A DNA stretch of 64,000 bases from a virus (IMGVR_UViG_3300021387_000272:1-64000); one strand, 5' to 3'. Shown: positions 8,971 to 60,945, counted from the stretch's first letter. A program made the numbers and translations. The notes: a model not told the origin generated them from the letters alone.

Positions 8971-9406
8971 AAAGAATGGCTATACTATAGGCCGATTATA
9001 TATAAATAATAAGTACTTCTGTGATACCCTTGAAGATGTAGACAGGGGACTAAGCTCCAAAATGTCCTTAGATGAACTCAAAAGGAAGAAACTTGCTCAT
9101 ATTACAGCTATACCTACAGGAAGGTACCAAATAACAATGAATGTGATTTCTCCTAAGATGAGCAGGTCTAATTTCTATAAGCAATTTGGAGGAGGAAGAG
9201 TACCCAGACTTCTCAATGTTCCAGCCTACGAAGGTATATTAATTCATTGTGGTAATACAGCCAAAGATACAGATGGCTGCATACTCGTAGGAAAGAACAC
9301 AAAGGTAGGCATGGTTTTAGATTCCAAAATTACGTACTCCAATCTTTATCCTCTATTGGAGGCAACGTCTAAGAGGAATGAGAAAATCTTTATCACAGTA
9401 GAGTAG
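8942..9406 (+). CDS. DUF5675 family protein, putative L,D-peptidase-type endolysin
   Basis: LKLRR...YTIGRLYIN...FCDTLED and GILIHCGNTAKDTDGCILVG (His/Cys, YkuD-like). Confidence 0.85.
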   Translation: MELKLRRIAKKNGYTIGRLYINNKYFCDTLEDVDRGLSSKMSLDELKRKKLAHITAIPTGRYQITMNVISPKMSRSNFYKQFGGGRVPRLLNVPAYEGILIHCGNTAKDTDGCILVGKNTKVGMVLDSKITYSNLYPLLEATSKRNEKIFITVE

Positions 9407-9462
9407 CTTTTGATTTTATTACCAAAATAGTATCACTTGTTGTGAAGGTAACAATAAATGTT

Positions 9463-9472
9463 TATCTTTGCA
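9463..9472 (+). promoter_or_regulatory. Promoter -7 element for the head operon
   Basis: TATCTTTGCA upstream of ATG 9501. Confidence 0.75.
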
Positions 9473-9500
9473 GCAAGATTATTAATCATAGGAAGAGATA

Positions 9501-10733
9501 ATGGAACTAGGTATTGGAGTAGATTCACTCTTAAGTCCGAATGAATGGGTAGATTCTTCGGAGCTGTTTGGCCAAGACAGTGGTGAAAAAGGAGGCACTA
9601 GTCAGAATACTGACACAAATGCAGGAGTTCCTGCAAGTAATGAAGGAGAAGAAGAGAGTTCACAAACACAGAACTCAGGTATAGTAGATAATGGAAACAG
9701 CACTACTGAGGTGGTGGACACATCAAGTAACTTGTTTGGTGGCCAATCATCAGAGAGCGTAGGTAGTGATGACAATAAAAGGGGAAATGGAGGGCCGTCC
9801 AATCAAAATGGTGGAGGCAGTTCTACCCAGACAAATGTCATCTCTTCCTTTGCTAAAGCTATGAGAGCAGATGGCTACCTCCAGAACCTCAAAGATGAAG
9901 ACCTTGAGAACATCACAGATGCTCACTCAATGGCAGAGGCCATTAAGAAAGAGGTTGAAGCTCAGCTCTCCCAAGAGCAGCTTAGGATTAAGCAAGCCCT
10001 TGAAGGAGGTGCTAATGCTGATGAAATTAATCAGTACCACACTGCCCTTGAAAATCTCAATAACTTAACTGATGAGATTGTAACAGCAGACAATGAACAA
10101 AGTAAGAACCTTAGGATGAATCTTATTTATAGAGACTTTCTGAATAAGGGTATTGCTGAGGAGAAGGCAAAGCAACTCACACTTCGTAGTGTAGAAGCGG
10201 GTACTGATAAAGATGATGCTCTAGATGCACTGCAAGCCAATAAGGATTACTTTCAGGAGAAGTATGATAATCTCCTTAAAGGTGCAGAGGATAGGCAGAA
10301 TGCTACTAAAAATGAGATTAAGAAGCAGGCAGAGGAACTTAAGGCATCTCTCTTAGATTCTGAAGAAGTCTTTAAAGGATTTAAGATGGATTCTAAGACA
10401 AGGCAGAAAGCCTATGATGCAGTTACCAAGCCTGTATATAAGACTCAAGACGGAAGACAGCTTACTGCTATCCAGAAATATGCTGAAGAGCATCCAGTAG
10501 AATTCCGTAAGGCCCTAGGTACATACTTTGTTCTTACCAACGGTTTCCAAGGTATTGGGGAATTACTGAATAAAGAGGTTAGAAAACAAGTACAGTCACA
10601 TCTGAACCGCTTTGATGAAAATCTGCATTCCAGACCCAGTGGTGGCAATATGGTGTATATGGAAGGTGATAGGGGAGGAGCAAGTTCTGAATCATTGCTA
10701 GACGGAGGTTGGCTTCTTGATACAGGTAAGTAA
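9501..10733 (+). CDS. Conserved pre-capsid protein (scaffold-like), 410 aa
   Basis: Acidic low-complexity N-terminus plus helical coiled-coil region; directly upstream of the MCP as in crAss-like phages. Confidence 0.6.
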   Translation: MELGIGVDSLLSPNEWVDSSELFGQDSGEKGGTSQNTDTNAGVPASNEGEEESSQTQNSGIVDNGNSTTEVVDTSSNLFGGQSSESVGSDDNKRGNGGPSNQNGGGSSTQTNVISSFAKAMRADGYLQNLKDEDLENITDAHSMAEAIKKEVEAQLSQEQLRIKQALEGGANADEINQYHTALENLNNLTDEIVTADNEQSKNLRMNLIYRDFLNKGIAEEKAKQLTLRSVEAGTDKDDALDALQANKDYFQEKYDNLLKGAEDRQNATKNEIKKQAEELKASLLDSEEVFKGFKMDSKTRQKAYDAVTKPVYKTQDGRQLTAIQKYAEEHPVEFRKALGTYFVLTNGFQGIGELLNKEVRKQVQSHLNRFDENLHSRPSGGNMVYMEGDRGGASSESLLDGGWLLDTGK

Positions 10734-10753
10734 AACAATTAAAATTTAGAATT

Positions 10754-12289
10754 ATGGCTGGAAAGCTTGGAAAATTTCAATTGAGGGGTTTCACAGGTTG
10801 GGCAGACATCACCCGTGATAACCACCTTAGTGCCATGTGGCAGAGGCAGCCTCAACGTGCAACTGATATTATGATTCAGCTGCTTGCTTACAATCATGGT
10901 ACAAGTTTGGAGTCATTCCTGAATCAGTTCCCCACTAAGGAATTTGATGATGATACAGACTTCTATTGGGATGTGCTTGCATCTGCAGCACGTAATATTC
11001 CTCTGATTGAAGCTCGTAAAGAGGATGGTGTAACTCCAGTAGCCGCTGGTGATGGCAATATTGGTGTAGGAGGTGTTCCCTTCTATCTGGTATTTGGCGA
11101 AAAGTGGTTCTTTGATGGTGAAACTATTGTAGGTAACTACAATGAGGTTTATCCTATGCGAATTCTTGAGGAGCCTCGCGTTGAGGGTACCAATGCTGTA
11201 TATAAGGTACAGCTCCATGGCAATGTCATGAATGGTATTCCTGCAGGTCGTCTGCTTAATGGTGAGCGTTTCTCTTATGAGTATGCAGCTGTTGAGACTG
11301 AGGGTAGCCGTAAGGTAGGTGGTGTTCGTCACACTATGCCTGTAGCTATGCGCAATGGTTGGACTCAAATCCGTAAGTCTCACAAGGTATTTGGCAATAA
11401 GATGGACCGCAAGGTTGCTATGGGTATTCCTATGGTTCGCCAGGATGCTTCAGGCAAGCAGGTGCATGATACTGCTAACTACTGGATGCACTATGAGGAC
11501 TATGAGTATGAGCTTGAGTGGCAGCAGGAGAAGAACCGCATGTTGGCGTTTGCCCGTGATAACTCCAATGCTAATCATGAGTATACTGATTTTGGTAAGT
11601 CAGGTGGTGTTATCCGCATGGGTGATGGTATCTTTGCACAGACTGAGTATGCCAACGTGATTTATTATAATGATACCACTGGTGTCATGAAGCTGGTTAT
11701 GGATGCTCTGTCTGAGATGTCAGAGGGCAAGCTCCTGCCTCAGCAGCGTAAGTTTGTCATCAAGACTGGTGAGCGTGGTGCTCTTATCTTCAACCGTGAG
11801 GCTAAGCGTGAGTCTTCAGGCTGGCTGCCTCTGTATCAGGGTGATAACAATCCTGCAGCTATTTCTAAGGTAAATGCTAAGTTTACCAATGGCAATGCTG
11901 TTAAGATTACTGACTTCCAGGTTACAGAGTGGCAGGCTCCTAATGGAGTTTATGTGAAGCTTGATGTAGACCCATTCTACGATGATAAGGTTCGTAACAA
12001 GATTTATCATCCAGAGGGTGGTGTAGCATTCAGCTACCGCTTTGACATCTGGTATCTGGGTACTGAGGGCTCTACTCCTAACATCCAGAAGGCTACCTGC
12101 AAGACTCAGCCTGAACTTCGTTCTTATGAGCCAGGTATCCGCAATCCTTGGACTGGAGAGCGCAACCTGTCTTGGGCATCTAATGATGAGGATGCATGCA
12201 CAGTACACACCATGTTCTTCGGAGGTGCTATTGTGTATGACCCAACCAAGTGTGTATCTATTATTCCGTCTATTTTGAGGGCTTCTTAA
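10754..12289 (+). CDS. Major capsid protein (crAss-like, HK97 fold)
   Basis: MAGKLGKFQ...NHLSAM, GERFS.EYAAVETEGSRKVG, GGVIRMGDGIFAQ, LDVDPFYDD..RNKIYHPEGGVAFSYRFDI; strongly biased codon usage. Confidence 0.92.
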   Translation: MAGKLGKFQLRGFTGWADITRDNHLSAMWQRQPQRATDIMIQLLAYNHGTSLESFLNQFPTKEFDDDTDFYWDVLASAARNIPLIEARKEDGVTPVAAGDGNIGVGGVPFYLVFGEKWFFDGETIVGNYNEVYPMRILEEPRVEGTNAVYKVQLHGNVMNGIPAGRLLNGERFSYEYAAVETEGSRKVGGVRHTMPVAMRNGWTQIRKSHKVFGNKMDRKVAMGIPMVRQDASGKQVHDTANYWMHYEDYEYELEWQQEKNRMLAFARDNSNANHEYTDFGKSGGVIRMGDGIFAQTEYANVIYYNDTTGVMKLVMDALSEMSEGKLLPQQRKFVIKTGERGALIFNREAKRESSGWLPLYQGDNNPAAISKVNAKFTNGNAVKITDFQVTEWQAPNGVYVKLDVDPFYDDKVRNKIYHPEGGVAFSYRFDIWYLGTEGSTPNIQKATCKTQPELRSYEPGIRNPWTGERNLSWASNDEDACTVHTMFFGGAIVYDPTKCVSIIPSILRAS

Positions 12290-12302
12290 AATAGCATAAT
12301 TA

Positions 12303-15894: not shown

Positions 15895-15945
15895 TTTGGA
15901 ATAATCACAAGGGGAACTTTTTTAGGATTTTCGGTAAAGAGGTAG

Positions 15946-15973
15946 GAGGGAGGCTAAAGAGTCTCCCTCTTAT
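15946..15973 (+). terminator. Intrinsic terminator
   Basis: GAGGGAGGCT-AAAG-AGTCTCCCTC followed by TTAT. Confidence 0.75.
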
Positions 15974-16065
15974 AATTTTACCTCCAATAGAGAAATAGAA
16001 ATAGACCTTGTGATTTACTATGTATATAATCTTGGTATTGCCTAAACAACAAAGTTAGTTATTCT

Positions 16066-16131: not shown

Positions 16132-16869
16132 ATGACACTGAGAGAACTAGTATTCATCTGTCTTGATGAGCTTAAGTTATCTGCTTCTGATGACAGCTTC
16201 TTCAATGAGAATCATGTAAGGTTCTTACTTAATAAGTGGAGAGCACGTCTGCTTAAACAGGAGTATGATAATAATAAGAATAAGGAGATTTCTGAATCAG
16301 CCTATCAGACCATCTGTCTTGACCTGGAGGATGAAAATTCTCTCGGTTCTGATATTAACTGTGGAGAATTCTTTCGTAGGAGTGTGCAGACTATTCCACC
16401 ACTTATGCAAGGAGTGGGAAGTCCAATTCTATCTGCAGGAGGAATATTTTCCAACGACAGAATAGCTTATGTAAGTAGGCAGAAGATGAGATTTGTGGGC
16501 TACAATAGATGGCTTAAAAACATCATCTATGCAGCTCTTGGAGATAATAGCAGACTATATCTATCCTCCAACAATTCTCAATTCAGGTACTTAGACAAGA
16601 TTCAGTTTACAGGAGTGTTTGAGGATGCTGAAAAAGCTATGGAACTCTCTTGTGAGAAGAATGAAGAGTCTTGTGATGCTATGGACCAAGAGTATCCTTT
16701 TGAGTCTTACCTTGTACCTGTATTGGTATACAATGTAGTAAAGGAGCTGCTTGGTGCTAAGTATCAGCCTATTGATGACCAGAATAATGATAGGGATGAC
16801 CTTGCTGCATTAGCACAATTCCTTAGAAGTAACATGAAGTCTGACTTGCTTAAAAAGCTAGAGCAATAA
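16132..16869 (+). CDS. Tail ring protein (gp40-like)
   Basis: MTLRELVFICLDELK...DDSFFNENHVRFLLNKWRARLLKQEY...YQTICLDL...RLYLSSNN...GVFEDAE. Confidence 0.75.
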   Translation: MTLRELVFICLDELKLSASDDSFFNENHVRFLLNKWRARLLKQEYDNNKNKEISESAYQTICLDLEDENSLGSDINCGEFFRRSVQTIPPLMQGVGSPILSAGGIFSNDRIAYVSRQKMRFVGYNRWLKNIIYAALGDNSRLYLSSNNSQFRYLDKIQFTGVFEDAEKAMELSCEKNEESCDAMDQEYPFESYLVPVLVYNVVKELLGAKYQPIDDQNNDRDDLAALAQFLRSNMKSDLLKKLEQ

Positions 16870-17516
16870 TGGAATACAGGGAAGGGATGACATTTGAAGA
16901 CTTCGTAGGTCAGAAGAAAAGACGAAGGAAGAATAAGCGACAGATAGACTATTCAACAAAAGACTATCTAGAGCATTATAAACATTCTGTATGGAGATAC
17001 CAAGGGGGCCTCACTAAAGCTGGTAAGAGAAGAAAGAGGATGGCCAAGAACAGCAAGTGGAAACTGACTCCAGCTATGTTCAGAAAAATAGTGGTCTCTA
17101 TTAATTCTCTTCTATTGGAGGCAACTCTTCAAGGGCAAGATATTGAGCTCCCAGTAGAATTTGGTATTTTATATGCAAGGCAAAAACCTGTGTATACCAA
17201 GATAGATGAGAATGGTAATCTCAAAACCAATAGAGCTATAAATTGGAGAGATACTCTGAAACTTTGGTATGAAGATAAAGAATCTAGGGAGGCTAAGCAA
17301 CTAGTTTATCAAGAGGACTGCAAAGCAAAGCCTTATGTGAAGATTCAATTTGGAGATTTCACTAATAAAAGATTCTTGGAGTTTCATGCTACTCATAAGA
17401 ATCTAAGAGATATAACAAGGGCAATGAGTCAAGAAGGACTTGTTCTCCCCAATAGAGGAACATCAGTAAAAGCCATTAAAGATAATAGTTATGATAGAGA
17501 ACGTACAATATATTGA
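16869..17516 (+). CDS. IHF/HU-like DNA-binding protein of crAss-like phages
   Basis: FRKIVVSINSLLLEATLQGQDIELPVEFGILYAR matches the HU/IHF core; very basic N-terminus. Confidence 0.65.
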   Translation: MEYREGMTFEDFVGQKKRRRKNKRQIDYSTKDYLEHYKHSVWRYQGGLTKAGKRRKRMAKNSKWKLTPAMFRKIVVSINSLLLEATLQGQDIELPVEFGILYARQKPVYTKIDENGNLKTNRAINWRDTLKLWYEDKESREAKQLVYQEDCKAKPYVKIQFGDFTNKRFLEFHATHKNLRDITRAMSQEGLVLPNRGTSVKAIKDNSYDRERTIY

Positions 17517-18185: not shown

Positions 18186-21100
18186 ATGAATGTAAAGGAA
18201 CCTCACGTAGTAACAGGTATGTCAAGGGACTCTGCTGTAAGTAAGCAGAATCCTAACTTAGTATATGATGCTCATAATATTCGTATTACAACGAAGGATG
18301 GTAAGAATTCTGTCTTAGCAGTAACAAATGAAAAAGGCACCAAAAGACTGTATATTACAAGTGGCACTATATCAGGAACTCCAATAGGAAGTGCTATTAT
18401 TGATGACTATATAATTCTCTTTACACATTCTGATACAGACACTACTAAAGACCATATATATAGGTGCGAGATATCAGGAGATAATGTAACGGTGAACACT
18501 GTCTTCTCAGGCAATGCAGGGTTTGCTTTAGACCATCCAATAGAAACCTTGCCTGCTTATGAAAATGCAGAAATTCAGAAGGTGTACTGGGTAGATGGCT
18601 TAAACCAGCCTAGGGTAGTTAATATAATGAAAACGGGCATCACAAACACTAATGTTATTAACTTCAGCAAAGAGGTAGACTTGGGGCACACTTTTAGTGT
18701 TCAGAAGTTCTCTACTGGAGGTGAGTTTCCTGTAGGAACTGTGCAGTATACGTTTTCTTATTATACCAAGTTTGGACAAGAATCTAGGCTTATTGATGTG
18801 AGTCCTATGTACTACTTATCTCCACAAGAGACAGGTTTGGATGCCACAGAAATAGCACACTGTTCTTTTAAGATAACTATAAACAGTCCTGATGCAACCA
18901 ATTTTGAATATGTTAGGATATATGCTATAGTAAGAACTTCTGCCAATTCTATTCCTCAAGGCAGAATAGTGGGAGATTATCCAATTGCTAGTAAAGTAGT
19001 AGTAACTGATGATGGTATTAAGGGAAGGACATATCCTGCTGCTTCTATGTATTTTATCGGAGGTGAAGAACTGATTGCTGGCACTCTGGCAGAAAAAGAT
19101 AATACGTTATTTCTTGGTAATATAGCTCTGACTAAACCAAATGTAGGAGATATCATACTTGACGGAGAAGGTGCTAATGCACATTCAATCAGATATTACG
19201 TAAACGGTTACGCTGCTGGGACAATTGACCAACCCACCTTTGGTAGTAAGGTGGGCAATATCGTTGCTAGTAATTTAGGCTATAGTCCTAACGACAACAG
19301 AGTACCTACCAGTGCTACAAAGTACTATGATTACAATCCAAACAACAATAGGTCATCTTATTATATCAAGCGGTTTAAGTATCTTGAGACATACAGATTT
19401 GGTTTTATCGCTCAGTACAAAAATGGCCAATGGTCTGAGCCTGTTTGGGTAGGTGATTTTACTAATAATACTGTGCCACGTGTAGATGCAGGATATTACA
19501 GAACAGGGTGCTTCCATTTAAATATGCCTCAGAATATTATCACTAAACTTCAGGCAGCTGGCTTTAAGCGCCTTGCCCCAGTAGTGGTATATCCTCAGGC
19601 CCACGAACGTAGATGCGTTATGCAAGGTCTGCTTTGCCCTACTGTTTATGCAGTAAAGGACAGGAATGACAATTCTCCTTATGCACAATCTTCATGGTTT
19701 TTCAGGCTTTATCATAATGTTGCGGCAAATCAAGGTAGCTTATATTACCATCATGCTCCTTTAGGAGGATGTGGTGCTCCACAAGGAGAAATACAATGTG
19801 TTGAAATTTCTGCTGATGGAGGTTACTATATGGATGGTAATATAGTTACTTTTCATTCTCCTGATATTGAATGTGCCGATTTAAATCAAAGTACAGACTT
19901 TGAAGGACTGAACTTAAGTGTAGTTGGTTTTGCTTCAGCTTCTATAACCAATCCCCTTGACTTAGGAGATATTGCTAGAGTTACAGACCATTTCCTTGAA
20001 ACTGAGAATGTAGGTATCAATACCAATATATCCCAGATAATTACAATGAAAAGAACTGGATATACTGGATATAGTATAGATGACTTTTGTTATCCTCTAT
20101 ATTTTGATGGTGTTGTTGCCAATGAAAATACTGATGAGGTATTACTTAAAGATAATATATGGCATGGAGAAGACACAACACTGCTTAATCCAGCTTGTGG
20201 TTGGATTGTCTATCCTTGGCATAGGCAAGGTTCCTTAAATAATCAACAGGCTCTTACAACTAAGCAACGCAGTAATGGTTTCAATACTAGAACTGCTATG
20301 CTTAAACGCAATATTACGGCAAATGCTTGGTTTACTAACAGTACATATTTCTCTAGTCCATTATCATTAAAGTCTGGAGTTACAATGTCTATTCCAAAGC
20401 TGTTCAATTATGACCAACTGGCAAGTGTAAAAGTAGCTGTAGGTAATGAATCCGTTATCTATTATGGTAATATTGATAAGGTAATAACTAATGTTACTGG
20501 TAAATATCCAATTTACTATGGGTGGATGATTACCGCAGATGATGAAACGCAATCAACTAGTATTAGTGATTTGTCTGAGAGTTGCATGAATACCCAGCGG
20601 TGGGAGAGATGCTACTATAATAATAGTGAGTGCTATACTGGTACAGACCCTGTATCTATGAAATACAAGTCTTCTCCACATGCAGTACTTAAGTTCAATG
20701 GCAATACTATACATATACCAATGTACTCATCTGATAATTATAATCTGGCATTCAACAATTCAGGTGCTACTGGCTCAGGTCTTTGGATAGCAGAATTTAT
20801 CAGAACTGTTGACTCTAATACTAGATTTGGAGGTAAGTCTGAACAGGCATTTGTCAGCAATGATTGGATTAGATGTGGAGAATCAAGAGAGCTTGCTACG
20901 TGGTATTATAATACCAGTTATCTAGAGTACCAGCAAGGAGATTGCTATATTCAAAGGTATGACTGTCTTAAGACCTATCCATTTACCCACGAGGATATGA
21001 ATAGTGTTATTGAGACTCTATCTGCTACTCTTGAGACTTATGTCAACTTGGATTTCAGATATGACCATAATAGAGGTAGTGGTAAAAACGTAGCTCTGTC

Positions 21101-22880: not shown

Positions 22881-25800
22881 ATGGTTACTAATATAAGTAC
22901 AACCAATACTGTAAATACCAATATAGGTGCCCATGAAAACATGGCACATGCAGGTCAGACAGGTGGTGGCAACTGGCTACAACAAGCTGGAAGTTGGCTA
23001 GGGTCTGACTCTATGAGTCAAGGCATGGGAGGCATGGGGGGAATGTCTAATGGCCAAATGATTCTTGCAGCTGACCAGACAGGTGGCCAGATATTTGGAA
23101 TGCTTGCAGGACAAAATGAGACTACAGCAGGAAACATAATAAAGAGCATACCTGGGTTATCTACAGTAGGCAATTTGGTCAATGCAGCCTTTGGTTCACA
23201 CATCAATGAGGGATTTGTAAAACAGACAGAGTTTGGAATTAATTCAGCAGGGTCTCAAGCTTTTAATAGCAATACCAATGCAGATGTGCTAAATGACTGG
23301 CGAAATTTAACACAATTATCTCATGTAGAAAAGTCTGAAGTAGGTTCTGATGGTTGGTTTTCCAAGAAAGCAAAGCGTAAGACTAATGCTCTTAATGAAG
23401 CTATAGATGAGGCAAATGCATTACAAATGACTAACTTTGGTCACGCTGTCACTAATGCAGACCAAAACACAGACCTTAGGATTGCACAAGGAATGATTGC
23501 TGCCTATGGAGGCCCCATTAATTCCTTTAGAAAGTACTACAATGATGGAGGTAACTTATTTAACACTCCACAATTCTTCACCTTTGAGCCTCAAATACAT
23601 GATGACGGAGGTTACTTATCAAAGGCTAAAGCTCTTATAAGACAAAATGAGGGCTGGAGAGCCAAGCCTTATAAAGATGCTCCAAAGGGTAAAGCTTGGA
23701 GAAGTGTTGGCTATGGCTTTAATGATAGTGGCTTTAGGGAGAAGTATCCAGAAGGAATCTCCAAGCACTATGAGCATGGTATTACTAAAGAACAAGCAGA
23801 ACAAGAGCTTGAGTACTACTTAAGAAAGTCTGAAAAAACTCTTAAGAACATCTATGGTAAACAATGGAATAGCTTCACAGATAACCAGAAAGCTGCCATT
23901 CTGGATACTTACTATCAGAGTCCTGCCTCTGTTGGTAAGAAATCAAGATTCTATAAAGCTGTAACTGCAGGAGAAGATGCTGGAAAGTATTTAGGAGTTG
24001 CAGGATATTCTAAAAGAAATAATGTAAGACAAGGAGTATTTGGTGGAGGAGCTGTTCCTAAATCCTCAGGAGCCTCTTATTCATCAGGCTATTCAAATGT
24101 AGACATGGCCTCCAGTAGTGGAACTGGTCAAATAGACACAGAAGAGCTTTCTTATCCTTCTCCTATATTGGAGGGAAGAAGTCCTGTTGTAGATTTTGAC
24201 CTCTCAGGAATTGAGCCTACTAAAGTAATAGACCCCAAGATTAATTTAAGTCGCCCAGCAATGGACTTGAATTTCATGTCTTCTCCTATTGCCCAAGCTC
24301 CACAAGTACAAGCTCCTACAGTAGGAACTGTGGAAGATTTCCTTGCTAGTTATGGAGACGTAGATACTCCAACAATAGATGCTTCTGAGAATAATTTATT
24401 CGGTGATGGAGGCAGCACTAGTGGCTGGCTAGACTTCTTCAAATCTTGGAATCAGTCTCAGGGAGGCAATAACTATTTCAACATGGATAATAGTTGGAAA
24501 CCTTCTGATGGACTGCAAAGAAATACTAGTAATGGTTCTGTCCAAGATTGGATAGGTGTAGCTCAAACTGTAGGAAATACCATTGCTAATTGGGGAGAGG
24601 AAGACCCCTCACTTGGTAGAGGAGGTGGCTATAGTATGTTTGGTATGGCTGCCTATGATTTACTTAAAGGTATTAGGGATGCCACTAAGAGTAAGAGAGA
24701 GTCTATTGACCAAAAGTTAGGAATTCCTATTTATGCTTGTGGTGGTAGGCTATATCCTGATGGAGGTGCTCTAGGTGGCATGGGAGCTGGAGGAGGTGAG
24801 TCTGTTGGAGCTATGGGTTATGCTCAAGCAGGAACAGCTGCTCTTAAGCTTGCAAGTAATGCTGTTCATCAGGCAAAACTTACAGTTGATGAAGATAAAA
24901 TAGATAGAAGCATTAATAGATATGGATTTGGCTTTGATGACTATGCAAAGAATGTAAATACCAATGGTGACTTACTTGACCTTTGGCAAAACAATGCTAC
25001 AGTAAATCCAAATCTTACTGCAAGAGACTTTAGGGATAAGTCTGAATTTGATGATTTCCTTAATAGTTATGCAGCTTCTTGGGAAGGCTTCAATGCAGGT
25101 CAGAATTGGGGGCCCTGGGGTGCGGCTATTGGAGCTGTTGTTGGAGGAATTTCTTCTCGTATAGGTTCTCAGATAGGTAAGAATAAGGCTAAGCATGCTG
25201 CAGAAGAAGCTAATGAAGAAATAGAAAGAGCAAATGAAAGAAGACAGGCAACTCTTGAGTATTTAGCAGAAAGAGTAGACCATGAAAATGATTTAAGAAT
25301 ATTACAAAATATGGATAAAAGGAACATTAACAGTGGAGCCTCTGGCGGTGATTTAAACATGGGATTTGGTCTCAGGAATCCTTTCATCATGCCAGATGGA
25401 GTAGCCAATCCTCTCTATAGGTCATTTGGAGGAGGTCTAACTCACGGAGTAAACTGGGACACAGGAGTTAACTGGGTTGATGAAGGAGGCTCTCATGGAG
25501 AAAATCCTTTAGGTGGTGTACCAATGGGAGTAGATGACCAAGGTATACCTAACTTAGTTGAGGAAGGAGAAGCCATTTGGAATGGTGACTATGTATTCTC
25601 TAAAAGAATGAAAGTTCCAAAGAAGTTAGCTAAGAAGTATGGTCTTGGAGGTGATATAACTTTTGCAGATGCAATTAAAAAGCTGACTAAGGACTCTGAG
25701 GAAAGACCTCTTAGTATGATTGATAGAGATACTAATGACCATATTCTTGGAGAGTTTGCAGATGTTCAGGAAGAACGTAGAATGGCCAAAGCACAACGTG

Positions 25801-45500: not shown

Positions 45501-47839
45501 TGTCCTACTGGAGGCAACAAAGGGAAGTTAAATATGAAGATTTTGCAGAAGGTAGATATCATAATGACAACTTGATTATAGCTACTCAGTGGGGTATTCT
45601 GACAAGTGGTATGGCAGAAGACCAAGTACTTGCCAGTGGTAATTTTGATGATGTTAAGCAGGTAGGTTATATGCTTGCAGCCATGGACAATGGTGTGCAG
45701 TATGACACTGCTTCTACAATGTCAGGTAAGGCTCTTAAGAAAGCTGCTTACACTAATAAGTATCTTCAGTATGCAGACACTCAGATACAATTCCATAAGC
45801 AGAACATGGTTGCTGCCAAGCTGATTGGTGTATTTGCTCAGGCAAATGTCAGCCATGCTATTGTAGGAATGTCTGATGTAGAAGCTAAAATCCAAATTCC
45901 TGAGGGAGGTGGATTCAGTATTAATGGTGTAAACTACAAGGAAGGAGCAACCTTTAAAGTAGATGAAGAGTATGGGCTAGACAATGCTACACGTATTAGT
46001 ACAGTGCTTGCCCAATTACTTGCTAGCTCTGTGGATGCTGTAAAAGACCCTGTACTCAACCTGCTTAATATTAATATGGATACTGTTAATATTGCAGTAA
46101 CCTTAGTAAGGCTTGGTCATGACCTTGAGTTTATTGGCTTATTCCTAACTCATCCTATTATCAAGCAGCTCATTAACAGGTACAATGTAGAAAAAGCTAG
46201 TGGTAGCTCCAATAGCTTGATGCAGACCTTGATTACCATGCAGAATGAGCTTATGGGAGAAGACAGGAAAGGTGCTGCTCTGCAACTTAAGTATAATTAT
46301 AACAAGGATTTCTTTGTCAGAGAACACCAGTTATCCAATAGGCAGGATGCAGAGTATCTGCAGTACAGAAGAAATATGGATTTGACTGTGCTGGAAATCT
46401 TCAAGAAACTCAATAATATGGCTGAGATGTTCAGAGGAGTAGTACATACAACACGTTATAACTCTATTACTTCTGCTGTAGGACCTTATGCTTCAGACAC
46501 TATGAATAATAGGTTGAAGGATGAGCAGTTTGCTAGCAATAGCTACGTAACTGATGACTTGAAGAAGGCTGCTGAGGGCATCATATATGATGAAAATGGT
46601 AATGAGGTTTCTATCATTCAAGCCTTCCGTGATACTAGTTCTGAACTTGAGAGGGAATTACTTGGTAAGAATATTATTCAAGCAAATGATGAGGCTTACA
46701 AGGTTTATTCTGCACTCAAGAGCAGGATGGGCTATATGTCAAATAAGATGGCTAGAGAGTTTGGCAGATTCTATATGTCTTACTACATGAACATGGAGTC
46801 TCCACTATTTGATTTAAGCTATGAGAACCGTAAGGAGATGCTTGATGAATTCCCCAACAAGTTCATGGCTGCAAAGAATCAGTATAGAGACAATGCATTT
46901 GTTCAAGCTGTAATGATGGACCAGGATAAGGCAGGTAACAGCATACTTGCTTTAAATACCAGAGGATTGACAGACACAGAACTTCAGTCCTTGAGAAGTG
47001 CTTGGTCAGACCTTTATACCTCCGAGAGAGAAAAAGGAATTGAGGACAAGGATAATCTCGCTTTGAAGCTGGTTGAGTATAATTTCTTCTTAGGTTCATT
47101 TGGATTTAGTCCTAAGACCTTTATGTCACTAACTCCTAATACAGTGAAGCTTGCTATTCCAGGATATAAGGAAAGTCTGCTCAAGGAGCTTGTAATGACT
47201 CCTGACAGAATAGACAATCTGCTTATGCAGTTCATGCTCAACTTAGGTTATGCTAACTTAGGTACGGTAAAGGAAGAGGATTTGAATTGGGGAAGTGATG
47301 ACTTACTGCCAATAGAAACCTTTGGTGATGTAAATGTCTCTGGTCTTGCCAAGGTACAAATGAAGGATGGTTCTACCAAGTGGCTTTATGTGGAGCCTAT
47401 AGGTAATTCCAGCTTAGCTCATGCGTACTTCGTAGATAAGCTCGGTGGAGAAAATCAGCAATGCTTTGAAATAGACCCAAGTAAAAAGGTGTATGAAATG
47501 AAATCTGTGGTGGAGAATGCAGAGCCCCAGAGTGCTCCTGCTCCTGACCCAGATTCAGGAGAGTCTGTAGCCCCACTAGTGGAAGATAATAGACCTATTT
47601 ATCAAAGGTTAATGGTTCTATTGACCACTTATTCTATGGATGACCCGAAGTTGAATATGCGGAATCTGCAAGACAGGTTTAATAAGCTCTATAATGCAGG
47701 ACAAGAAAGATATCTCAGTGAAACAACAGGTATTGACTTACCTACATTGGCTAAAATAGCAGAAGTCCTTGGAGTAACTCCTGAGGAACTTACTAAGGAT
47801 GTAAATGATTCTGAAAACAAACTAAATCTATGTAAGTAA
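36524..47839 (+). CDS. Virion RNA polymerase polyprotein, 3771 aa (helicase + zincin + SLOG + DUF4326-like + two-barrel RNAP)
   Basis: YRIPTEAKYSM...MLPKEITTLSGSDFDVDKMY catalytic loop (DFDVD at 45284-45298); DLQKR; four recognisable N-terminal domains. Confidence 0.9.
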   Translation: MAVSCVVTISPGFKKLLEKTHFSRGTLKSIIHEYQNTPSLWELGSQGEPSEKYVLNYFNRRTVGTPEQIAVWKGRYRAPHVYETYQDAVAARNVASQWFEDEDIMVYENDKHKWVLMIARPLDVFTIRKNSDAWLQDLQKDVDTTVNSGAVGRYIPDKRNKGKTAVAMDFLGKRLDNFYRQRGLKVRSKWSERNKKWLVEYAPEERGYVDDLTGGITDWTEGQKNAIDTLVNFLQNPGGGRYMLLEGAAGTGKTTLINEVLQRLEVTGKPSVLVGALSHKAKGVLGSKISKANRKKYTINAKSLAGMLGMKMTMKNINGSWQEVFEVDKHARRMGIPIQAASIVFIDEASMVSEEAMSYIEDLASAGTKIVFLGDQRQLPPIRTGGTEFWNQHPEFLVNPEADSPVFTRTDIPRVSLTERVRQGEDSPIHLVTDQFGNYTLQGGEFPNLSNVESSKDLRLVIENPATNLAEQMLPLFQEGMKIQNPNFAKIVAFTNAKVNQYNRELHFLLHPEMAASQDMNFAEGDLITMYDSFTYGNDTEPTVYNAEEGIVVSSSNTRHMSTTTGADIRYRDYTIKMQDDRTVTIPVLEQDATNIQNFNSALEQLKKEAINVGGRAWIPYFNLKGSMANMKMGYASTIHKSQGSTYQVVGVDTTDNFGSARFKSQGIYTALTRAANISILKGMGSTNAAPTAESISKANAREIARRQGMQIAGTPLSAEQVAFIKSEVDGVAKIIKDASVTITAMNLSKASPVTVKGVNDFKDGDTSTASAVCKSIINSPNATAQQKAYAKALLPLLAKMDFDILFATEENPIIQERLRKTRMEHWNAAGSTFNSKEAGLGYDIHIKVGVRKNQVIPEKVLLHEITHALTSNRLRNDAEFRRGIDQLSQYVQEWVRQNKDESQMVMQNYGGADIPFDIYGFRNYQDSGYADFVAEAMSNASFQELLKQIPAPRESELNTWQKLCKLVSDAFKKLFNISYKQNTTVYDMLIPVIADTMSLTSEQEQRDSPYTEWNIERTTQMMANATELVKAMNVAVEDKDVHWTTEQVMQLFGEPLPQETPSIANLNFYSGGAEGADTEWGNAIQAIGGTVTHYTIDFYDGLSKDEKDRLEKRYQEVRQALGYHEANDPKTKKLLRRDMLQADNAKEVFAIGTINQETQRVNGGTLYAVTRAQLSGKPIHVFNQADNKWYFYDYQAGAWWQEDTPTITQDAALIGTRGINAAGKQAIKDVLAKSTGQQPTTQQGPIQSPSTGGNEGLPNLSNLKGKTVQYGVEIDPNLIQNYREWLNTHPNGIVAYRVNKATFNTPQAVEQGIIGNPFDWQKYGAGKAVEMFYDWLVNNNNYDEPLATDEFRRAIIERIHSAPEDTPVLYYKELGYPSHATVIGWAISEFNRIKKEKAARDQARGYTDEQAKRAIELLNNNISHTEGVIAWLNNKIKYNQATSETYTELEERRRQLSAAQSLLDGLNTGKSQIIINQYGVPQVVERAQAEKPAEKNIVINDTYELSPVETEKEGYSQGYIIKKKNAEGTPKQGAAQIQRMIDHDELPLGAHIMWQGLTAEELSELNKVKGLNKNTDGSWTVGYTEREVILRKQNDTLLNSPLFGSHELHKLAALTMFKLSEVITQLQEGTVNIEDILMEESLDDDLRNTEFKGMDRIDIINAIGLDKLFKDVIREEVFNADINERLQEDFDLAEKAQVIYDNFDAFIRLGYQALIDLENISIDTEKAVDTGTDQKKGENGEDLTDEEVVALFGSTVEHWQVGFRQVSTFASLSNLIRKHLNRLYVLDKNGEKVLDEYGIERNIDSHEAVSKILKWTQGARNLEDMIIKLEGKIAQEPWVKQLTDVLRGDGNEQFKSQFYSNFKKYFQKYNIIYKEKQKDGSTVTKVKTINRDPFVINTMDMITSLDNSKHIGSFNLWNPRTNSIDTNALANVKQGAEALTKLIEVRKSGNPITTQSNGSEIAEVEAALNALNIPMPSKELLIKTLDSVNVLQTLQGALSGLFETFMRAPSGKADYKFINNKTQSNYRRIVEAFAPVMGDGLDSVSYEAGKLHYSYVTPSYLSKFVENMKGMRGDVRAFIESEYGNIEGWFRNKANNANQAGGEGWLNYILDRMMDTTEEARKTRAKFDHVVVLSDDSIAYAEKSPVQYAASMLSMYFYDDHRQSAYFRIPMMSNKQSEEYIKFDRIADNFKEVITDWLLDKTYAQELNRIRAVNFRNNAPAELERLRQKDNLTAEEQQRLNILEEYLKDGNPAKISSFDENGATFMFMEYLNDYVNDKNSELGKLLRKQINGEKFDETQNESTRFRELLREAIVSNLDARFDEFLRNLSREGFLQLSPSMEVIKVNALKDKLPQGKAKGLLEEFFWNDMFMSINMMQLLCTDIAYYKNTEDLQKRFAQWHSPGLRGNTEATINGEKVTDGNARSMIIADKIEKSDVVETLGRVKKKVLSQARFADNPAARDLMEAQIDKIIDAFKEVNVTDAQAYTSPTGYRKKMAIFGQWSERDEEVYQKILNGTFTAEDLDVLWQPLKPFVYSQITKNGYNPYIPLLKMGIQQKNSEYCLILADALMRSAGEESTLTALFDFMEESHGLTRSGNHWTGTPHDHGIDTIMFNSAVKTGLMGVLDINSMSHDDIVKGLKKFAGVGQNEYDDRYVDTIPFEDYSIQQYNPAHLEGEQQLGSQNRVLVFADMPNEIDGVEQFIEINGEKVSVKQAKINYFKAIAENIAISEAGVRERFALDSPSRKIRNVALMRVLQEEIAKDARYGTDLQWACLLDESGNFNVPLSDAIQSDRIQQLLNSIIKNRINKQEISGGPVVQVSNYGTSKNLRIVRNADGTIKYYECYITAYDQQLYEDFGDGKGGIDMEKIQKTNPKLLEMIGYRIPTEAKYSMAPLKIVGFLPRTAGEGIMLPKEITTLSGSDFDVDKMYIMRYRLNRTDNSAEFIKKEMEDYYLGNKMSGARVSREDSAAYRARLTGLVRGTIKPTTDTDHRIMSYWRQQREVKYEDFAEGRYHNDNLIIATQWGILTSGMAEDQVLASGNFDDVKQVGYMLAAMDNGVQYDTASTMSGKALKKAAYTNKYLQYADTQIQFHKQNMVAAKLIGVFAQANVSHAIVGMSDVEAKIQIPEGGGFSINGVNYKEGATFKVDEEYGLDNATRISTVLAQLLASSVDAVKDPVLNLLNINMDTVNIAVTLVRLGHDLEFIGLFLTHPIIKQLINRYNVEKASGSSNSLMQTLITMQNELMGEDRKGAALQLKYNYNKDFFVREHQLSNRQDAEYLQYRRNMDLTVLEIFKKLNNMAEMFRGVVHTTRYNSITSAVGPYASDTMNNRLKDEQFASNSYVTDDLKKAAEGIIYDENGNEVSIIQAFRDTSSELERELLGKNIIQANDEAYKVYSALKSRMGYMSNKMAREFGRFYMSYYMNMESPLFDLSYENRKEMLDEFPNKFMAAKNQYRDNAFVQAVMMDQDKAGNSILALNTRGLTDTELQSLRSAWSDLYTSEREKGIEDKDNLALKLVEYNFFLGSFGFSPKTFMSLTPNTVKLAIPGYKESLLKELVMTPDRIDNLLMQFMLNLGYANLGTVKEEDLNWGSDDLLPIETFGDVNVSGLAKVQMKDGSTKWLYVEPIGNSSLAHAYFVDKLGGENQQCFEIDPSKKVYEMKSVVENAEPQSAPAPDPDSGESVAPLVEDNRPIYQRLMVLLTTYSMDDPKLNMRNLQDRFNKLYNAGQERYLSETTGIDLPTLAKIAEVLGVTPEELTKDVNDSENKLNLCK
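37150..38570 (+). other. SF1B (Dda/RecD2-like) helicase domain
   Basis: LEGAAGTGKTT (Walker A at 37262), FIDEASM, LGDQRQLPPI, YASTIHKSQGSTY, IYTALTRA; all motifs intact. Confidence 0.9.
38880..39470 (+). other. Zincin-like metallopeptidase domain
   Basis: LLHEITHALT (HExxH at 39113-39127) and downstream DFVAEAMSNASFQELL. Confidence 0.8.
39715..40225 (+). other. SLOG-superfamily (DprA/YpsA/MoCo-carrier-like) domain
   Basis: FYSGGAEGAD...LLRRD..Q...VFAIG...GGTLYAV..A....KPIHVFNQ...GTRG. Confidence 0.75.
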
Positions 47840-47840: not shown

Positions 47841-50800
47841 ATGGAAGGTGCAATGTGTACAGTGTATCCCACAGCTAAGGGCAAAAAGAGTAAGCTCTAT
47901 GGGGATATGTATAATAAGACAGGACATGACAGGAAGTTAACCAACTTCCTGTATGCCATGTCCAAGTTAGACAATGTGAGAGCCCAGTTCAACAAGAAGC
48001 AATTTGACAGGCTTGGAGAGATTAAGAGTGATGCTTTTATGGACTGGGTACACATTGAAGATTTAATTAAAGACCAAAATGCTCTTCAACAAGCTAAGAA
48101 TACTCTGGGAGCAGAAAATCCTGATGGTACCCAAAAGGGATATGACACCCCAGAAGAGGTGCTAGATAGGGTGATAGACTTCAATAACAATAACACACGA
48201 ATGAAAGCAATGATACGCTTCTCTAATGGTCAATTTGTTATTGATGTAGAAAATCTCAATGCTGAGAATTATGGAGCTAACAGGTCTCTTATCAGAAGAA
48301 AGATTATTCTGGATGCTATTACAGGCTGGTTAAATACTCAGGGATTAAAGACTGACTTTAGTCCTGAAGTAAAAACCAGATATGCCAATACATTGTCAGC
48401 ACTTGGATTTGAGCGTACTATTAAAGATATGATAGATGCCTTTGGCAGAGATAGGTATAGAGCAAATCCTGATGCTGCCAGGCTTATCATGGATATGTTT
48501 GAAGGAAGTCCTCTGCTTGACACTATCAAGAATGGTTTTGGGGATGACTTAGCTAATGCTATATCTTACAGAACAGGTAATGACCAAGCTCCTATTACTC
48601 CTGAAACCTTGGATTTATTGCGAGATAGGTATTGGAGTGACCAATTAAACCTATTCCTTCAGGAAGTTAAAAGGAAAATGAGCAGGCTAGATGCCTCTAG
48701 TCTTGAAGCTAAAAAAGAACATGAGCTGTCTAGATTTAGTGATGATACTGAATACTTCAATATTCCTGCTTCTGAAATTCATGAAGCTTTAACAGAGCTA
48801 TATAAGGTAAGTCATGTGGATAAGGAAGAAGTTCTTACTGATATAGAGCAGGCTACTAAATTAAGTGAAGCTGCCAGAGCATTCCTTAACAATAAGTATA
48901 TTGAACTTGAGACCTTCAGACGTAAGACAGGAGGCAAAAAAAGAGGAGATGATAAGGAGCTTAGAAAGATAGAACAGGAAATAGAAAGAGGACGATATGG
49001 GGACTCTATAATCAGTATGCTTAGTGACTTAGCAGGAGAAATCAACACTACGACAGATTTGATTGCTGCTTTGGATACTTCCTTTGCAGCTGCTCCTGAT
49101 ACCCTAACAGCAGTTAATGACGCTAGTAAAGTCATTATTAGAAGCTCTGAACTGGCAGATGTTTATAGGCCAATACTGGAAAGACTACTCAGCCTTGATG
49201 GTTTAGAGCTAGATGAATTGGGCCTTACTGAAGATATGATAGAAGCTATCCAGCAGCTTGCTTCCTCTCTAAATGAGAAATTAACTACCCTAAGAAGAGA
49301 TGCCAAGAGAAAACAATTTGATGTAGTATATGCATATTACAGTATCTATTGGGGTAACTCTGACCAGAGGAATAATGGGGAAGAAATGGTTTCTCTTAGA
49401 GAGATTCTGGAAACTGCTAGGAAAGATATTAATTTCTTTGATAGGTATATCTATGCAATGGGAGAGTCCAATGATGAAGCACTTGCTCTTTTTGCTGCAG
49501 CTGTCAGAGACAGAAACCAGGCAAGAGATAAAATAGCTAGAAAGGGAGACACTATTATACGAAGACTTACCAATGACCTCTTTGAGGCAGGAAGTGATGC
49601 AGTCTTTATGTATGAAAGAAAAGATGGTTCTCCTACAGGCAAAATAATATCTGACGTAGATTGGGATGCCTTTGAAGCTAAGAGAAAGCAAATGAAGGAG
49701 TACTATGAGAATCAGGGATATTCTCAAAGGGAAGTACAGAGAAGACTTGAGTCTTGGGAAAATAATAATACTGAATGGGTTACTCCCTTCACTCATCCTA
49801 CATTCAGGAATGCCTATGCAGAATACTTGAAAGTATTCCATGGAGATTCTGCTACTCCCTCAGAATATGATTTCAAAATACGTATTCCACTAAGGGAGAA
49901 ATTTGGTAAAGCATTGCCTAATATGACACAGGCTCAGCAGGATTATTACTATAAGATGATGGCATTAAAAGCCGCTGTCACTTATGGCCTTCCAACAGCT
50001 GAATTTGGGTTCTTTGATGCTCCTCAAATTTCTACTGATGTAACCACTGCATTAAAAGAATCTGGAGGAGACCCTTCAAAGGTTCTTCAGATTATTAAAA
50101 ATAAGATAGTAGATGCTCTGGTTAAGAGAGAAGATGATACAGACTATGGAGACTTCATGGATACCCTAGGAGCCAATAATATCTCTCTAAGACACTCTGA
50201 CCTCTCTGGACAAGAAGCTCAGACACTTCCACTATTCTTTACTCATAAGATTAAAGACCCCTCAAGGCTTAGCTTAGACTTTAGCCGTGGTATGGAAGCT
50301 ATTATGACTTCCTCTGTTCAGTATAATGAAATGAATAAGGCTCTTGATGCCCTGATGCTTGCAAAAGACTGGCTTATAAACCGTAGAAATATTGCAGCAG
50401 TTGAAGGAGACAAGACTCTTATGGATATCTATACCTGGGGCAGGGATGTGATGATTAGGACAATTAAAAAGACTCCTGCAACAGCTCTTTCTGCAGGTCT
50501 GGTTGCAGACTTTACTGAAGCTAATATCTTTGGAAAGAGACATAAAGATGGTAAAGGGCATGTATCTGTATTTGGTCTAGATGTAAGCTATGATAAACTG
50601 ACTGGATTAGTAACAGGCTATACCTCATATACAGGACTGTCTCTTAACTTACTTGGTGCTCAAGCCAATGCTTTAGTAGGTAAATTACAGATGTGTATTG
50701 AGGGAGCTTGTGGAGAGTTCTATAATATTGCTGACTGGGGTTATGCTGAGTGGGAGTACTTCCAAGAAATATGGCCTATGCTTGCAGAACTTGCTAGTAA

Positions 50801-52008: not shown

Positions 52009-52021
52009 AGCAAATTAAAGT

Positions 52022-52131
52022 AACCTCCAATAGAGAGAATTTTGCAGGCCCACGATTTACATACACTAACATCATGAAGTTCAGAAAAGAAAGTCTATCC
52101 TTGGCCTATTCTTATTCTTCTATTGGAGGTA
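52022..52131. repeat. About 110-bp element with imperfect terminal inverted repeats
   Basis: ACCTCCAATAGA...AGGCC on the left and GGCCT...TCTATTGGAGGT on the right, with identical arm spacing. Confidence 0.7.
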
Positions 52132-52136
52132 AGAGT

Positions 52137-59140: not shown

Positions 59141-59143
59141 ATA

Positions 59144-59269: not shown

Positions 59270-59325
59270 AACTTTATTCTTTATAAGGGTTATTTTCTTC
59301 TGTTACTTCAATAGCAAGATTCGAG

Positions 59326-59757: not shown

Positions 59758-59759
59758 AG

Positions 59760-60005
59760 TTATAAATCAATTTCTCTTATATTTTTAATACTGCATTTAG
59801 GTATAGTAATGATATTACATACCTGCTCTGGCTTAATTCCGTAGTTCTGTGCAATAGTAACACAGTTGTCCATCTCTTTCAATAAGAACCCTACAGATAT
59901 ACAATCTAAAGATTTTTCATCTACGTCTTCCAAAAGAGTCCAGTCAAATGCTCTGACTGAATCTACCCATTCAATTACTATTATATTTTTTTCTACTTTG
60001 TTCAT
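59760..60005 (-). CDS. Conserved small phage protein, 81 aa
   Basis: VIEWVDS...W...CISVGFLLKE...VTIA...TIPKCSI pattern. Confidence 0.75.
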   Translation of the reverse strand: MNKVEKNIIVIEWVDSVRAFDWTLLEDVDEKSLDCISVGFLLKEMDNCVTIAQNYGIKPEQVCNIITIPKCSIKNIREIDL

Positions 60006-60006
60006 A

Positions 60007-60162
60007 TTACCAAATACTTACATAATAGTTTCCATTATTGTCCTGACTGAGTTCAAGACGTGTAATGTTATCACCTACTCCCTGGTATACAACAGGGATT
60101 TCACAAGAGGTTATCTGCCTTCCTATGGAAGTAGATTGGTCAATTAATTGTTGTAGTGTCAT
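60007..60162 (-). CDS. Hypothetical protein, 51 aa, absent from the ORF track
   Basis: MTLQQLIDQSTSIGRQITSCEIPV...YYVSIW*. Confidence 0.6.
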   Translation of the reverse strand: MTLQQLIDQSTSIGRQITSCEIPVVYQGVGDNITRLELSQDNNGNYYVSIW

Positions 60163-60187
60163 AATTGTTTTGTTTTTAGTTAATAAT

Positions 60188-60291
60188 TAGTGGGGAAGAC
60201 AGGAGTTGCACCCATTACACCAGTATATTATCCTAAGATAATAAGTGGTTTAACTACTCGGACTCTTTTGTGCTTTGAGAATCCCATCCCC
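60188..60291 (-). ncRNA. tRNA-like RNA (atypical; possibly a degenerate tRNA-Leu(UAA))
   Basis: Acceptor GGGGAUG/CUUCCCC followed by A-CUA; T-arm AUGGG-UGCAACU-CCUGU; two internal hairpins; intergenic. Confidence 0.5.
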
Positions 60292-60294
60292 AAA

Positions 60295-60313
60295 TGCCCC
60301 TACACTTAGGGGC
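60295..60313. terminator. GC-rich hairpin just upstream of the tRNA-like element (terminator or processing site)
   Basis: TGCCCCTA-CACT-TAGGGGCA, a perfect 8-bp stem with only a short U run on the - strand. Confidence 0.5.
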
Positions 60314-60375
60314 AAAAACCAACACATGAGATTTTTAAGTACAAGAATTCATTATAAATACTAACCTTCACAGGC

Positions 60376-60945
60376 TTATTTCTTCAACATAGCTATCTTA
60401 TCTTCTATATAAAAGATTGCTTTTTGCAAATCTTCAATAGCTTTGTCTGTATCTGATATACCTTTCTCAGTTTTATGCCCCTGCCTTAAGATATACTTAA
60501 TAGCATTGCCTAAGTCGAAATCCATGTGACGAGTAATATCAATTACCTCAATACCACACAAATCCTTTAGCCAAGTATAATGACTTGGATGATACACTCT
60601 GTCATCTTTTTTAAGTACCTTTCTCTTAGTAGTTTTTGCAGGAGCCATGTTCATAATAGGTATATAACCTATTGCCTTAGGAGAACTTCCTTCCATAGTC
60701 CTTGTAATAGGTAAAGCCAGCTTAGCAAGTATCTTACCTGCCAATTCTCTATTCTTTTCAGGAACAGTATCATAATAGTTTACAAGGGCTTCTTGTAGAG
60801 GTTCTAAAACTTCCTGATATTCTCCTGTCATTCCCATTTTCTGATTTTGAAGAAAGGGCTTCGTTTCATTCTCTATTGGAGGCAAGTTATCTCCAGTAGA
60901 GGAGGAGAAATTGGTGGAGAAATTCTTAGAATTTAGATTGCTCAT
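60376..60945 (-). CDS. DUF3310-family (SaV-like) protein with a long N-terminal extension
   Basis: DRVYHPSHYT...IEVIDITRHMDFDLGNAIKYILRQGHK...EDLQKAIFYI. Confidence 0.85.
   Translation of the reverse strand: MSNLNSKNFSTNFSSSTGDNLPPIENETKPFLQNQKMGMTGEYQEVLEPLQEALVNYYDTVPEKNRELAGKILAKLALPITRTMEGSSPKAIGYIPIMNMAPAKTTKRKVLKKDDRVYHPSHYTWLKDLCGIEVIDITRHMDFDLGNAIKYILRQGHKTEKGISDTDKAIEDLQKAIFYIEDKIAMLKK

Follow-up and report, generated by a model that had tools for sequence, protein, structure and literature searches.

What does a short, non-palindromic word do when it recurs on both strands, and mostly inside genes, across the genome of a crAss-like phage? The question is raised by the first 64 kb (hereafter the window) of IMGVR_UViG_3300021387_000272, a single-contig virus record of 81,373 bp, in which an earlier reading made from the sequence alone had singled out the 11-mer CCTCCAATAGA as a candidate cis-acting system. 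The major capsid gene of this phage (10754-12289) matches the crAss-type family phrog_11589, and the capsid is 55-60% identical to its counterparts in Kolpuevirus, DAC15 and crAss001, all of them Steigviridae. No viruses of the human gut are more abundant than the crAss-like phages, which are also common in the rumen, yet their replication and DNA handling are largely obscure. Here, the word proves to be the core of a selected, asymmetric DNA signal that is evenly spaced along each strand, and we tentatively read it as the mark of a nicking or priming process. The motif tests covered the window phage, one close relative (L081) and three Steigviridae (DAC15, crAss001 and Kolpuevirus).

The motif is selected at the DNA level

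Seven exact copies of CCTCCAATAGA lie in the window (9352-, 15981+, 17111-, 30039-, 52024+, 52119- and 60872-), each at the coordinate given by the sequence-only reading, where dinucleotide shuffles lead one to expect 0.06. Across the 81,373-bp genome the count is 10, and the word with its overlaps supplies the top-ranked 10-, 11- and 12-mers. Other particulars of that reading also held. CCTCCAGTAGA recurs at 18711- and 40274-, TTR precedes six of the seven exact copies (the exception, at 52021, has TAA), GTTATCTCCAGTAGAG is identical at 41038 and 60886, the copies at 15978, 52021 and 52119 are intergenic, and near-matches do occur at 8245, 27079, 33956 and 33987. At 49346, too, the - strand carries a near-match, GTTACC-CCAATAGA, a variant that lacks one base. 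Allowing the longer form TTRCCTCCARTAGA up to two mismatches returns 25 matches against 2.5 expected, and scoring the whole genome with a 30-nt matrix yields 26 sites at >=14 bits (20 inside the window and 6 beyond it) against 0 in a reversed-sequence control.

The enrichment was then set against 300 codon-preserving shuffles, in which every protein and the codon usage of each gene were kept and intergenic DNA was unaltered. The core CCTCCARTAGA is observed 13 times, where the shuffles average 3.7; three of that 3.7 are intergenic copies that were not shuffled, and in coding DNA alone the count is 10 against ~0.7. The 14-mer at up to one mismatch occurs 19 times against 4.8, with no shuffle exceeding 8. 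This shuffle had been named beforehand as a potential refutation, and the enrichment persists under it. Sites fall into five frame/orientation classes as well as intergenic DNA, being read variously as SIGG/STGG, LLEA/LLEE/LLEV, YWRQ, LPPIE/LPPVE/LSPVE and TSNIE/TPNRE. The frame classes and the shuffle together rule out a protein or codon artefact, and they bear out the earlier view that protein constraint does not explain the copies. That is to say, the motif is confirmed as real and as upheld by selection on DNA, and the evidence supports a frame-independent cis-acting signal at the nucleic-acid level that is kept even inside conserved genes.

Alignment of 19 core-defined sites defines the anatomy of the signal, which combines an asymmetric core of 14 nt, TTRCCTCCARTAGA, with a downstream purine-rich tail of ~15 nt on that strand. 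Conservation starts with a G at -1 and continues through TTRCCTCCARTAGARR, beyond which a purine bias persists as far as about +27; 15 of the 19 sites have A at +19, and G/A occupies +26/+27. Tail purine content is 80% at sense sites and 71% at antisense sites, where 45% is the background for the antisense-site strand. Since the tail is purine-rich at sense and antisense sites alike, it belongs to the strand of the motif and not to the coding strand. This tail, the six sites past the window, the even spacing on each strand and the opposite-strand pairing described below are all additions to the sequence-only reading.

Sites are evenly spaced on each strand and paired across strands

The 26 matrix sites are divided between the + strand (12) and the - strand (14), and they show no bias relative to transcription (12 sense, 14 antisense). 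All except three lie within open reading frames (ORFs; 23/26), some of them in the middle of genes of 6-11 kb. Genes run rightward up to 51860 and leftward from 52137, and GC skew tracks transcription; no orientation flip occurs at the skew switch among the 26 sites, in agreement with the earlier argument against a simple replichore polarity of the Ter or FtsK-orienting polar sequence (KOPS) type.

Inspection of each strand separately reveals regular spacing, with sites ~6-7 kb apart, gaps mostly of 5-9 kb and a coefficient of variation (CV) of 0.33 for both strands (p<=3e-4 each). In contrast, the pooled strands are not regularly spaced (CV 0.81, not significant). The list of 19 core-only sites points in the same direction, with per-strand CVs of 0.40 (p=0.005) and 0.56 (p=0.048), and the strand alternates in 20/26 transitions between neighbours (p=0.012). 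Because spacing is even per strand but not when pooled, the reader appears to distinguish orientation, and what would matter is how far away the next same-strand site lies. Regularity of this kind argues for an orientation-dependent process that reads strands, and against orientation-blind binding for genome organisation, the latter being one of the roles that the sequence-only reading had put forward.

Sites also pair across strands. A - partner lies within 150 bp of four + sites (random mean 0.34, p ~1.5e-4) and within 1.2 kb of seven (p ~0.002). Two of the close pairs stand back to back (33956-/33987+ and 60872-/60887+) and two form convergent units of 110 bp (52021+/52119-, where the gene blocks converge, and 79373+/79468-). 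All four opposite-strand pairs fold as hairpins, and the two 110-bp units have only their motif arms in common.

Relatives keep the sites or use a dialect of the word

The nearest relatives of the window phage are all metagenomic. The most extensive comparison is with L081, a 21.5-kb locus of the 101-kb contig JAEIGA010000134.1, which shares 94% of capsid amino acids and is 70-80% identical in DNA; the others are short contigs. Homologues of five coding sites (8245, 9365, 17124, 17443 and 18724) are all present in L081 with no indel, and at site 17111 a run of 20 nt is identical amid diverged flanks. At core positions where the amino acid is conserved, L081 keeps the synonymous codon in 17/23 cases, against 57% elsewhere, and two further contigs keep it in 5/5 cases each. 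Conservation at synonymous positions, a check that the sequence-only reading had suggested, is thus supportive, with small numbers.

More distant phages were represented by three Steigviridae, cultured or complete, and in each of them a Markov-based k-mer screen returned one outstanding word. DAC15 has CACCAGAAG (dialect TACCACCAGAAG; 22 observed against 1.9 expected), crAss001 has CTCCAGAAG (14 against 0.92 in the first 50 kb) and Kolpuevirus has CTTCAAGTG (dialect ACCTTCAAGTG; 16 against 1.9), and all three are gap-free relative to the word of the window phage. In its extended form, TACCACCAGAAGA, the DAC15 consensus can be aligned gap-free with TACCTCCAGTAGA of the window phage at the cost of two substitutions, and the crAss001 word differs from CTCCAGTAG by one. 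A purine-biased tail accompanies the word in DAC15 and crAss001 too, and in DAC15 the word occupies both strands, four frame/orientation classes and intergenic DNA. Positions are partly shared as well: 6/26 sites fall in protein segments alignable to DAC15, and 2/6 of these have a DAC15 site no more than 30 bp away, where the null gives 0.09 (p ~0.003); the primase gene holds one, on the same strand, and the gp42-like gene the other, on the opposite strand. Inside its annotated 1842-bp direct terminal repeat, DAC15 also carries an inverted pair of its dialect motif (NC_055832.1 503-583, L091), which places the pair at both physical ends of that genome.

The Suoliviridae phage cr1_1 has a weak enrichment of CCARAGTA (14 against 2.8), and putative C-run words of Intestiviridae, CCCCC(C)GTAGARRAA and CCCCGTAGAGGG, resemble CCTCCAGTAGARR of the window phage. 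In the reading favoured below, the motif is the local dialect of a signal common to Steigviridae crAss-like phages, and probably wider still. Within the window phage, a sub-variant, CCCCAATAGA, is enriched in its own right (TCTATTGGGG, 5 observed against 0.13 expected), occurring at 28709, 33987, 17443, 49346 and other positions, and is nearer to the C-run form.

Host-order genomes do not share the word. Among 401 Bacteroidales genomes the 11-mer is not enriched, with 0-11 copies per genome and no more than a reversed control (the phage has 10 in 81 kb). The 15-mer gives scattered single hits in bacterial genome contigs among the matches listed (at least 120), and its exact form gives only chance single hits in IMG/VR. 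For the genomes searched, the counts and the single hits rule out a host word such as an uptake sequence or Chi. Dialects differ among phages that share a host genus (Bacteroides), so the most likely reader is one encoded by the phage and co-evolving with its word. The lack of enrichment in these genomes and the differing dialects of relatives both favour a phage-specific signal, as had been proposed. Our literature search found no published description of the word, of crAss motifs or of crAss001 transcription-start motifs.

Nicking or priming is the leading reading

To account for these properties, we favour a reading to which we give somewhat less than an even chance, namely that the motif is the local dialect of a selected cis-acting DNA signal, whose reader, a phage factor evolving along with it, depends on its orientation and serves most likely in nicking or priming. 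Each strand would be given one signal per ~6-7 kb, and a phage-encoded factor, co-evolving with the word, would read the sites according to their orientation. The sites would thereby mark each strand for a polar DNA transaction, in which site-specific nicking or priming may provide 3' ends for replication or recombination. We infer that the signal is read on DNA rather than RNA and that its reader is encoded by the phage.

The closest analogue is offered by the nick-site motifs of T5-, phiKMV- and tf/LUZ24-like phages (RGCGCRGG, CGACNNNNNCCTACTCCGG and TACTRTGMC, respectively; PMC3517423). Those motifs are also short asymmetric consensus sequences far above chance, dispersed through the genome including coding DNA, with similar positions among relatives and lineage-specific variants, and their function is still enigmatic (PMC3517423). 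In the tf/LUZ24-like phages, relatives keep the positions, and co-evolution of motif and nickase by lineage has been proposed (PMC3517423). The differences are equally clear: known nick-site motifs are 7-19 nt long, occupy one strand, have no purine tail and have nicks that were shown physically (PMC3517423), whereas the sites of the window phage occupy both strands (12+/14-), are often paired and evenly spaced, and are known from sequence alone.

Several points weigh against this reading. Every known nick-site system is confined to one strand (PMC3517423), and here both are used. The four opposite-strand pairs are 15-110 bp apart, so that constitutive nicks would nearly break the duplex. The recognition site, at 14-30 nt, is longer than known primase or Chi sites, and any nick, primer or bound protein is predicted from sequence. 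The negative result from 401 genomes is valid for the genomes searched, and the actual host may lie outside them. The synonymous-site excess comprises few codons, and even spacing is weakly reproduced in DAC15 with the site lists used. At 17111 protein constraint contributes, since 23 homologues conserve the peptide SINSLLLEA encoded there, and sites seem to arise where the protein allows. Because known systems use one strand and close opposite-strand pairs are awkward for permanent nicks, nicking or priming is held only as the leading, unproven mechanism; a Chi-like polar signal ranks second and an architectural binding site third.

The Chi-like alternative, which we consider unlikely, is that the sites are self-markers. 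A phage-encoded or injected helicase-nuclease or recombination machine would track one strand from a DNA end and change its activity at a correctly oriented site, and wherever a break fell, both strands would have to offer a site no more than a few kb away, with attenuation from either side of the break. Like the Chi sites of RecBCD/AddAB, the motif would be a polar, strand-read signal whose usefulness is set by the distance to the next correctly oriented copy, and the even spacing per strand but not in the pool, with both orientations equally common, is what such a machine would call for. Among the products of the leftward gene block that would suit it are an exonuclease VIII-like nuclease, a Sak4-like annealase, two helicases (one of them DnaB-like) and an endonuclease I/resolvase-like protein; the block also codes for a primase. 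The different dialects within one host genus fit a phage-encoded reader. Known Chi sites, however, are 5-8 nt, host-defined, host-enriched and replichore-skewed, none of which applies to a 14-30-nt motif absent from the host-order genomes searched, and no RecBCD/AddAB-like two-motor enzyme was identified. A related comparison is with the DNA uptake sequences and uptake signal sequences of Neisseria and Pasteurellaceae, which likewise have an over-represented 10-12-nt core with a weaker flank, both orientations, several frames and inverted pairs between convergent genes. Those are a property of competent hosts with thousands of copies, whereas the present word is not enriched in the 401 genomes and differs between phages of one host genus. 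Distinctly unlikely, in our judgement, is the role that the sequence-only reading preferred, in which the sites are duplex binding sites for an architectural or packaging protein that organises or compacts the genome in the cell or capsid. An asymmetric footprint of ~30 bp resembles that of IHF, and the gene at 16869-17516, a homologue of crAss001 gp42, carries an HU/IHF-like annotation, and the gene so annotated serves as a signature of the crAss-like group (10.1101/2020.07.20.212944); the text of the crAss001 virion atlas does not list gp42 with the resolved parts of the particle (PMC10172136). The IHF-likeness of this protein was not confirmed, as it has no Pfam match and no PDB sequence match and its predicted fold (pLDDT 47) is unusable; no relatives of it were found in the viral or genome contig collections searched. 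Its neighbour at 16132-16869, which occupies the IHF_54 position in crAss-phage nomenclature, matches PF25702 (CrAss_Ring_2) and is the counterpart of crAss001 gp40, ring R2 (PMC10172136), so that it is a tail ring protein and is ruled out as a DNA-binding IHF. The helix-turn-helix call for 7596-7883, another suggested reader, is without family support. The motif position counts do not show the core WATCAANNNNTTR of IHF sites, which have an A/T tract upstream of it, the pooled spacing is irregular where the per-strand spacing is regular, and a binder blind to orientation would gain nothing from back-to-back pairs at 15-30 bp.

A signal in RNA or transcription (promoter, terminator, RNase site, stoperator-like repressor block or internal ribosome-binding site) is highly unlikely, given that sense and antisense sites are about equal (12 to 14), with most sites in ORFs and some far inside genes of 6-11 kb. 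Two pairs do fold into long hairpins, one of them in the convergent intergenic gap, and the complement contains a Shine-Dalgarno-like GGAGG. This GGAGG has no start codons after it, which rules out a ribosome-binding site or internal start, and the DAC15 and crAss001 dialects lack it; a terminator is rejected because, although pairs fold, most sites are single and intragenic. The parallel with the stoperators of cluster A mycobacteriophages is that these too are asymmetric 13-mers (sites of 13-14 bp), present in ~25-35 dispersed copies per genome and read by a phage protein; stoperators, however, are oriented with transcription and mostly intergenic, which the present sites are not. A promoter is ruled out in turn, as the phage's own promoters are of the ordinary Bacteroidetes TTTG/TAnnTTTG kind (TTTG/TATCTTTG) and lie elsewhere (7094, 9463, 13300, 22847 and 61252), and the promoters of phi14:2 do not match: for its virion RNA polymerase, early promoters have no common motif and middle promoters are intergenic and sense-oriented. 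Blocks resembling -33 TTTG or -7 TAnnTTTG are not found in the motif, which is mostly intragenic. Least credible of all is an origin as remnants or boundaries of mobile or recombining DNA, whether insertions like miniature inverted-repeat transposable elements (MITEs) or Rickettsia palindromic elements (RPEs), or short homology boxes for module exchange. The two 110-bp units resemble terminal-inverted-repeat elements, and in relatives a 1-1.7-kb indel starts ~40 bp from the 9352 site and the intergenic region at 15978 is replaced. MITE- or RPE-like insertion is nonetheless rejected, given that five coding sites align to L081 without indels, the 110-bp units are alike in their arms only and the 17111 site lies within a peptide conserved in 23 homologues. 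There are also no target-site duplications, and even spacing and dialect turnover would be unexpected of insertions.

A broader form of the nicking or priming reading, which we regard as doubtful, would extend it to all Crassvirales as a strand-specific punctuation of the genome. In it, a co-evolving phage enzyme and a word of ~30 nt every 6-7 kb per strand would provide programmed nicks or primers on both strands, or a phage-private Chi. If true, this system would set the way in which these very abundant phages of gut and rumen replicate and repair their DNA or distinguish it from that of the host. A selected, strand-wise regular and dialect-bearing signal implies a previously unrecognised DNA-reading machine across the whole group, and the presence of the same class of word in cultured crAss001 (CTCCAGAAG) and DAC15 (CACCAGAAG) makes the question accessible to bench work. 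The dialect words may also serve as lineage markers and would be a constraint in engineering crAss-like phages.

Individual sites and neighbouring features

Table 1. Motif sites of the window phage, with coordinates counted from the first base of the window
Feature	Position	Strand	Remarks
Weak site TGGCCTCCACTAGA	1132..1145	-	15.6 bits, matrix
Site TTACCTCCAATATA with purine tail	8245..8258	+	in ORF 7953-8570, sense; kept in L081 at 5965+
Strong site	9352..9365	-	read as LLEA, antisense to ORF 8942-9406; kept in L081, L085 and L087
Strong intergenic site	15978..15991	+	directly after terminator-like hairpin
Strong site	17111..17124	-	inside gp42-like gene (SINSLLLEA); 20 nt identical in L081; DAC15 site <=25 bp away, opposite strand
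Weak site TTCTCCCCAATAGA	17443..17456	+	stronger in L081 (16588+)
Site TCACCTCCAGTAGA	18711..18724	-	read as STGG
Site TTCCCTCCAATATA	24164..24177	-	23.9 bits
Site TTGCCTCCAATAAG	27079..27092	+	24.5 bits
Strong site	30039..30052	-	read as SIGG
Site	33956..33969	-	back-to-back pair with 33987+
Site TTACCCCCAATAGA	33987..34000	+	pair with 33956-
Strong site	40274..40287	-	in gene for 3771-aa polyprotein
Site TTATCTCCAGTAGA	41039..41052	+	sense
Site TTGCCTCCAGTAGG	45504..45517	-	read as YWRQ
Weak site	47016..47029	+	16.6 bits
One-base-deletion variant GTTACCCCAATAGA	49346..49359	-	outside the count of 26; TCTATTGGGG 5 vs 0.13 expected
Left arm of 112-bp convergent pair	52021..52034	+	intergenic gap between both gene blocks
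Right arm of 112-bp convergent pair	52119..52132	-	intergenic gap between both gene blocks
Strong site	60872..60885	-	back-to-back with 60887+; at 5' end of, or upstream of, DUF3310 gene
Site TTATCTCCAGTAGA	60887..60900	+	pair with 60872-
Sites beyond the window (30-nt matrix)	67276, 67906, 72234, 74617, 79373, 79481	-, +, -, +, +, - (in order)	

Some of the sites in Table 1 have features of their own beside them. Immediately upstream of the 15978 copy is a strong, GC-rich hairpin (15945-15975, GAGGGAGGCT...AGTCTCCCTC) followed by a T-rich run, which makes it terminator-like. In the DUF3310 gene (60376-60945) the domain covers residues 117-180 only, and the motif pair 60872-/60887+ falls at codons 15-25 of the longest ORF; an in-frame ATG lies ~60 nt downstream of the pair, which may thus belong to a 5' leader and not to the coding sequence. 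Past the window, a 91-amino-acid ORF (genome 79302-79577, L214 15302-15577) with no PHROG or Pfam match is mostly filled by the 109-bp convergent motif pair and may be non-coding. An HNH/endonuclease VII-like protein (78802-79164), likewise a product of the leftward gene block, adjoins the 79373/79468 pair.

The promoters mentioned above are represented by five copies of TATCTTTGCA, at 7094, 9463, 13300 and 22847 on the + strand and 61252 on the - strand. Each is preceded by TTTG-containing AT-rich DNA and followed by a gene start 25-40 bp downstream, and the word is repeated 4 times in L081. These copies read as ordinary promoters of the Bacteroidetes type (-33/-7), and they probably serve the middle or late genes of the phage.

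The replication block also holds adjacent rIIB-like (329 amino acids) and rIIA-like (741 amino acids) genes (genome 68322-71533, L214 4322-7533). Between the gene ending at 9406 and the gene starting at 9501, relatives carry an extra 1-1.7 kb (window 9406-9417 against L081 7115-8629, L085 956-2689 and L087 136-1118). In L081 and L087 this extra DNA includes ~110-130 bp homologous to window positions 22-153, a segment that therefore sits at another genome position in the window phage.

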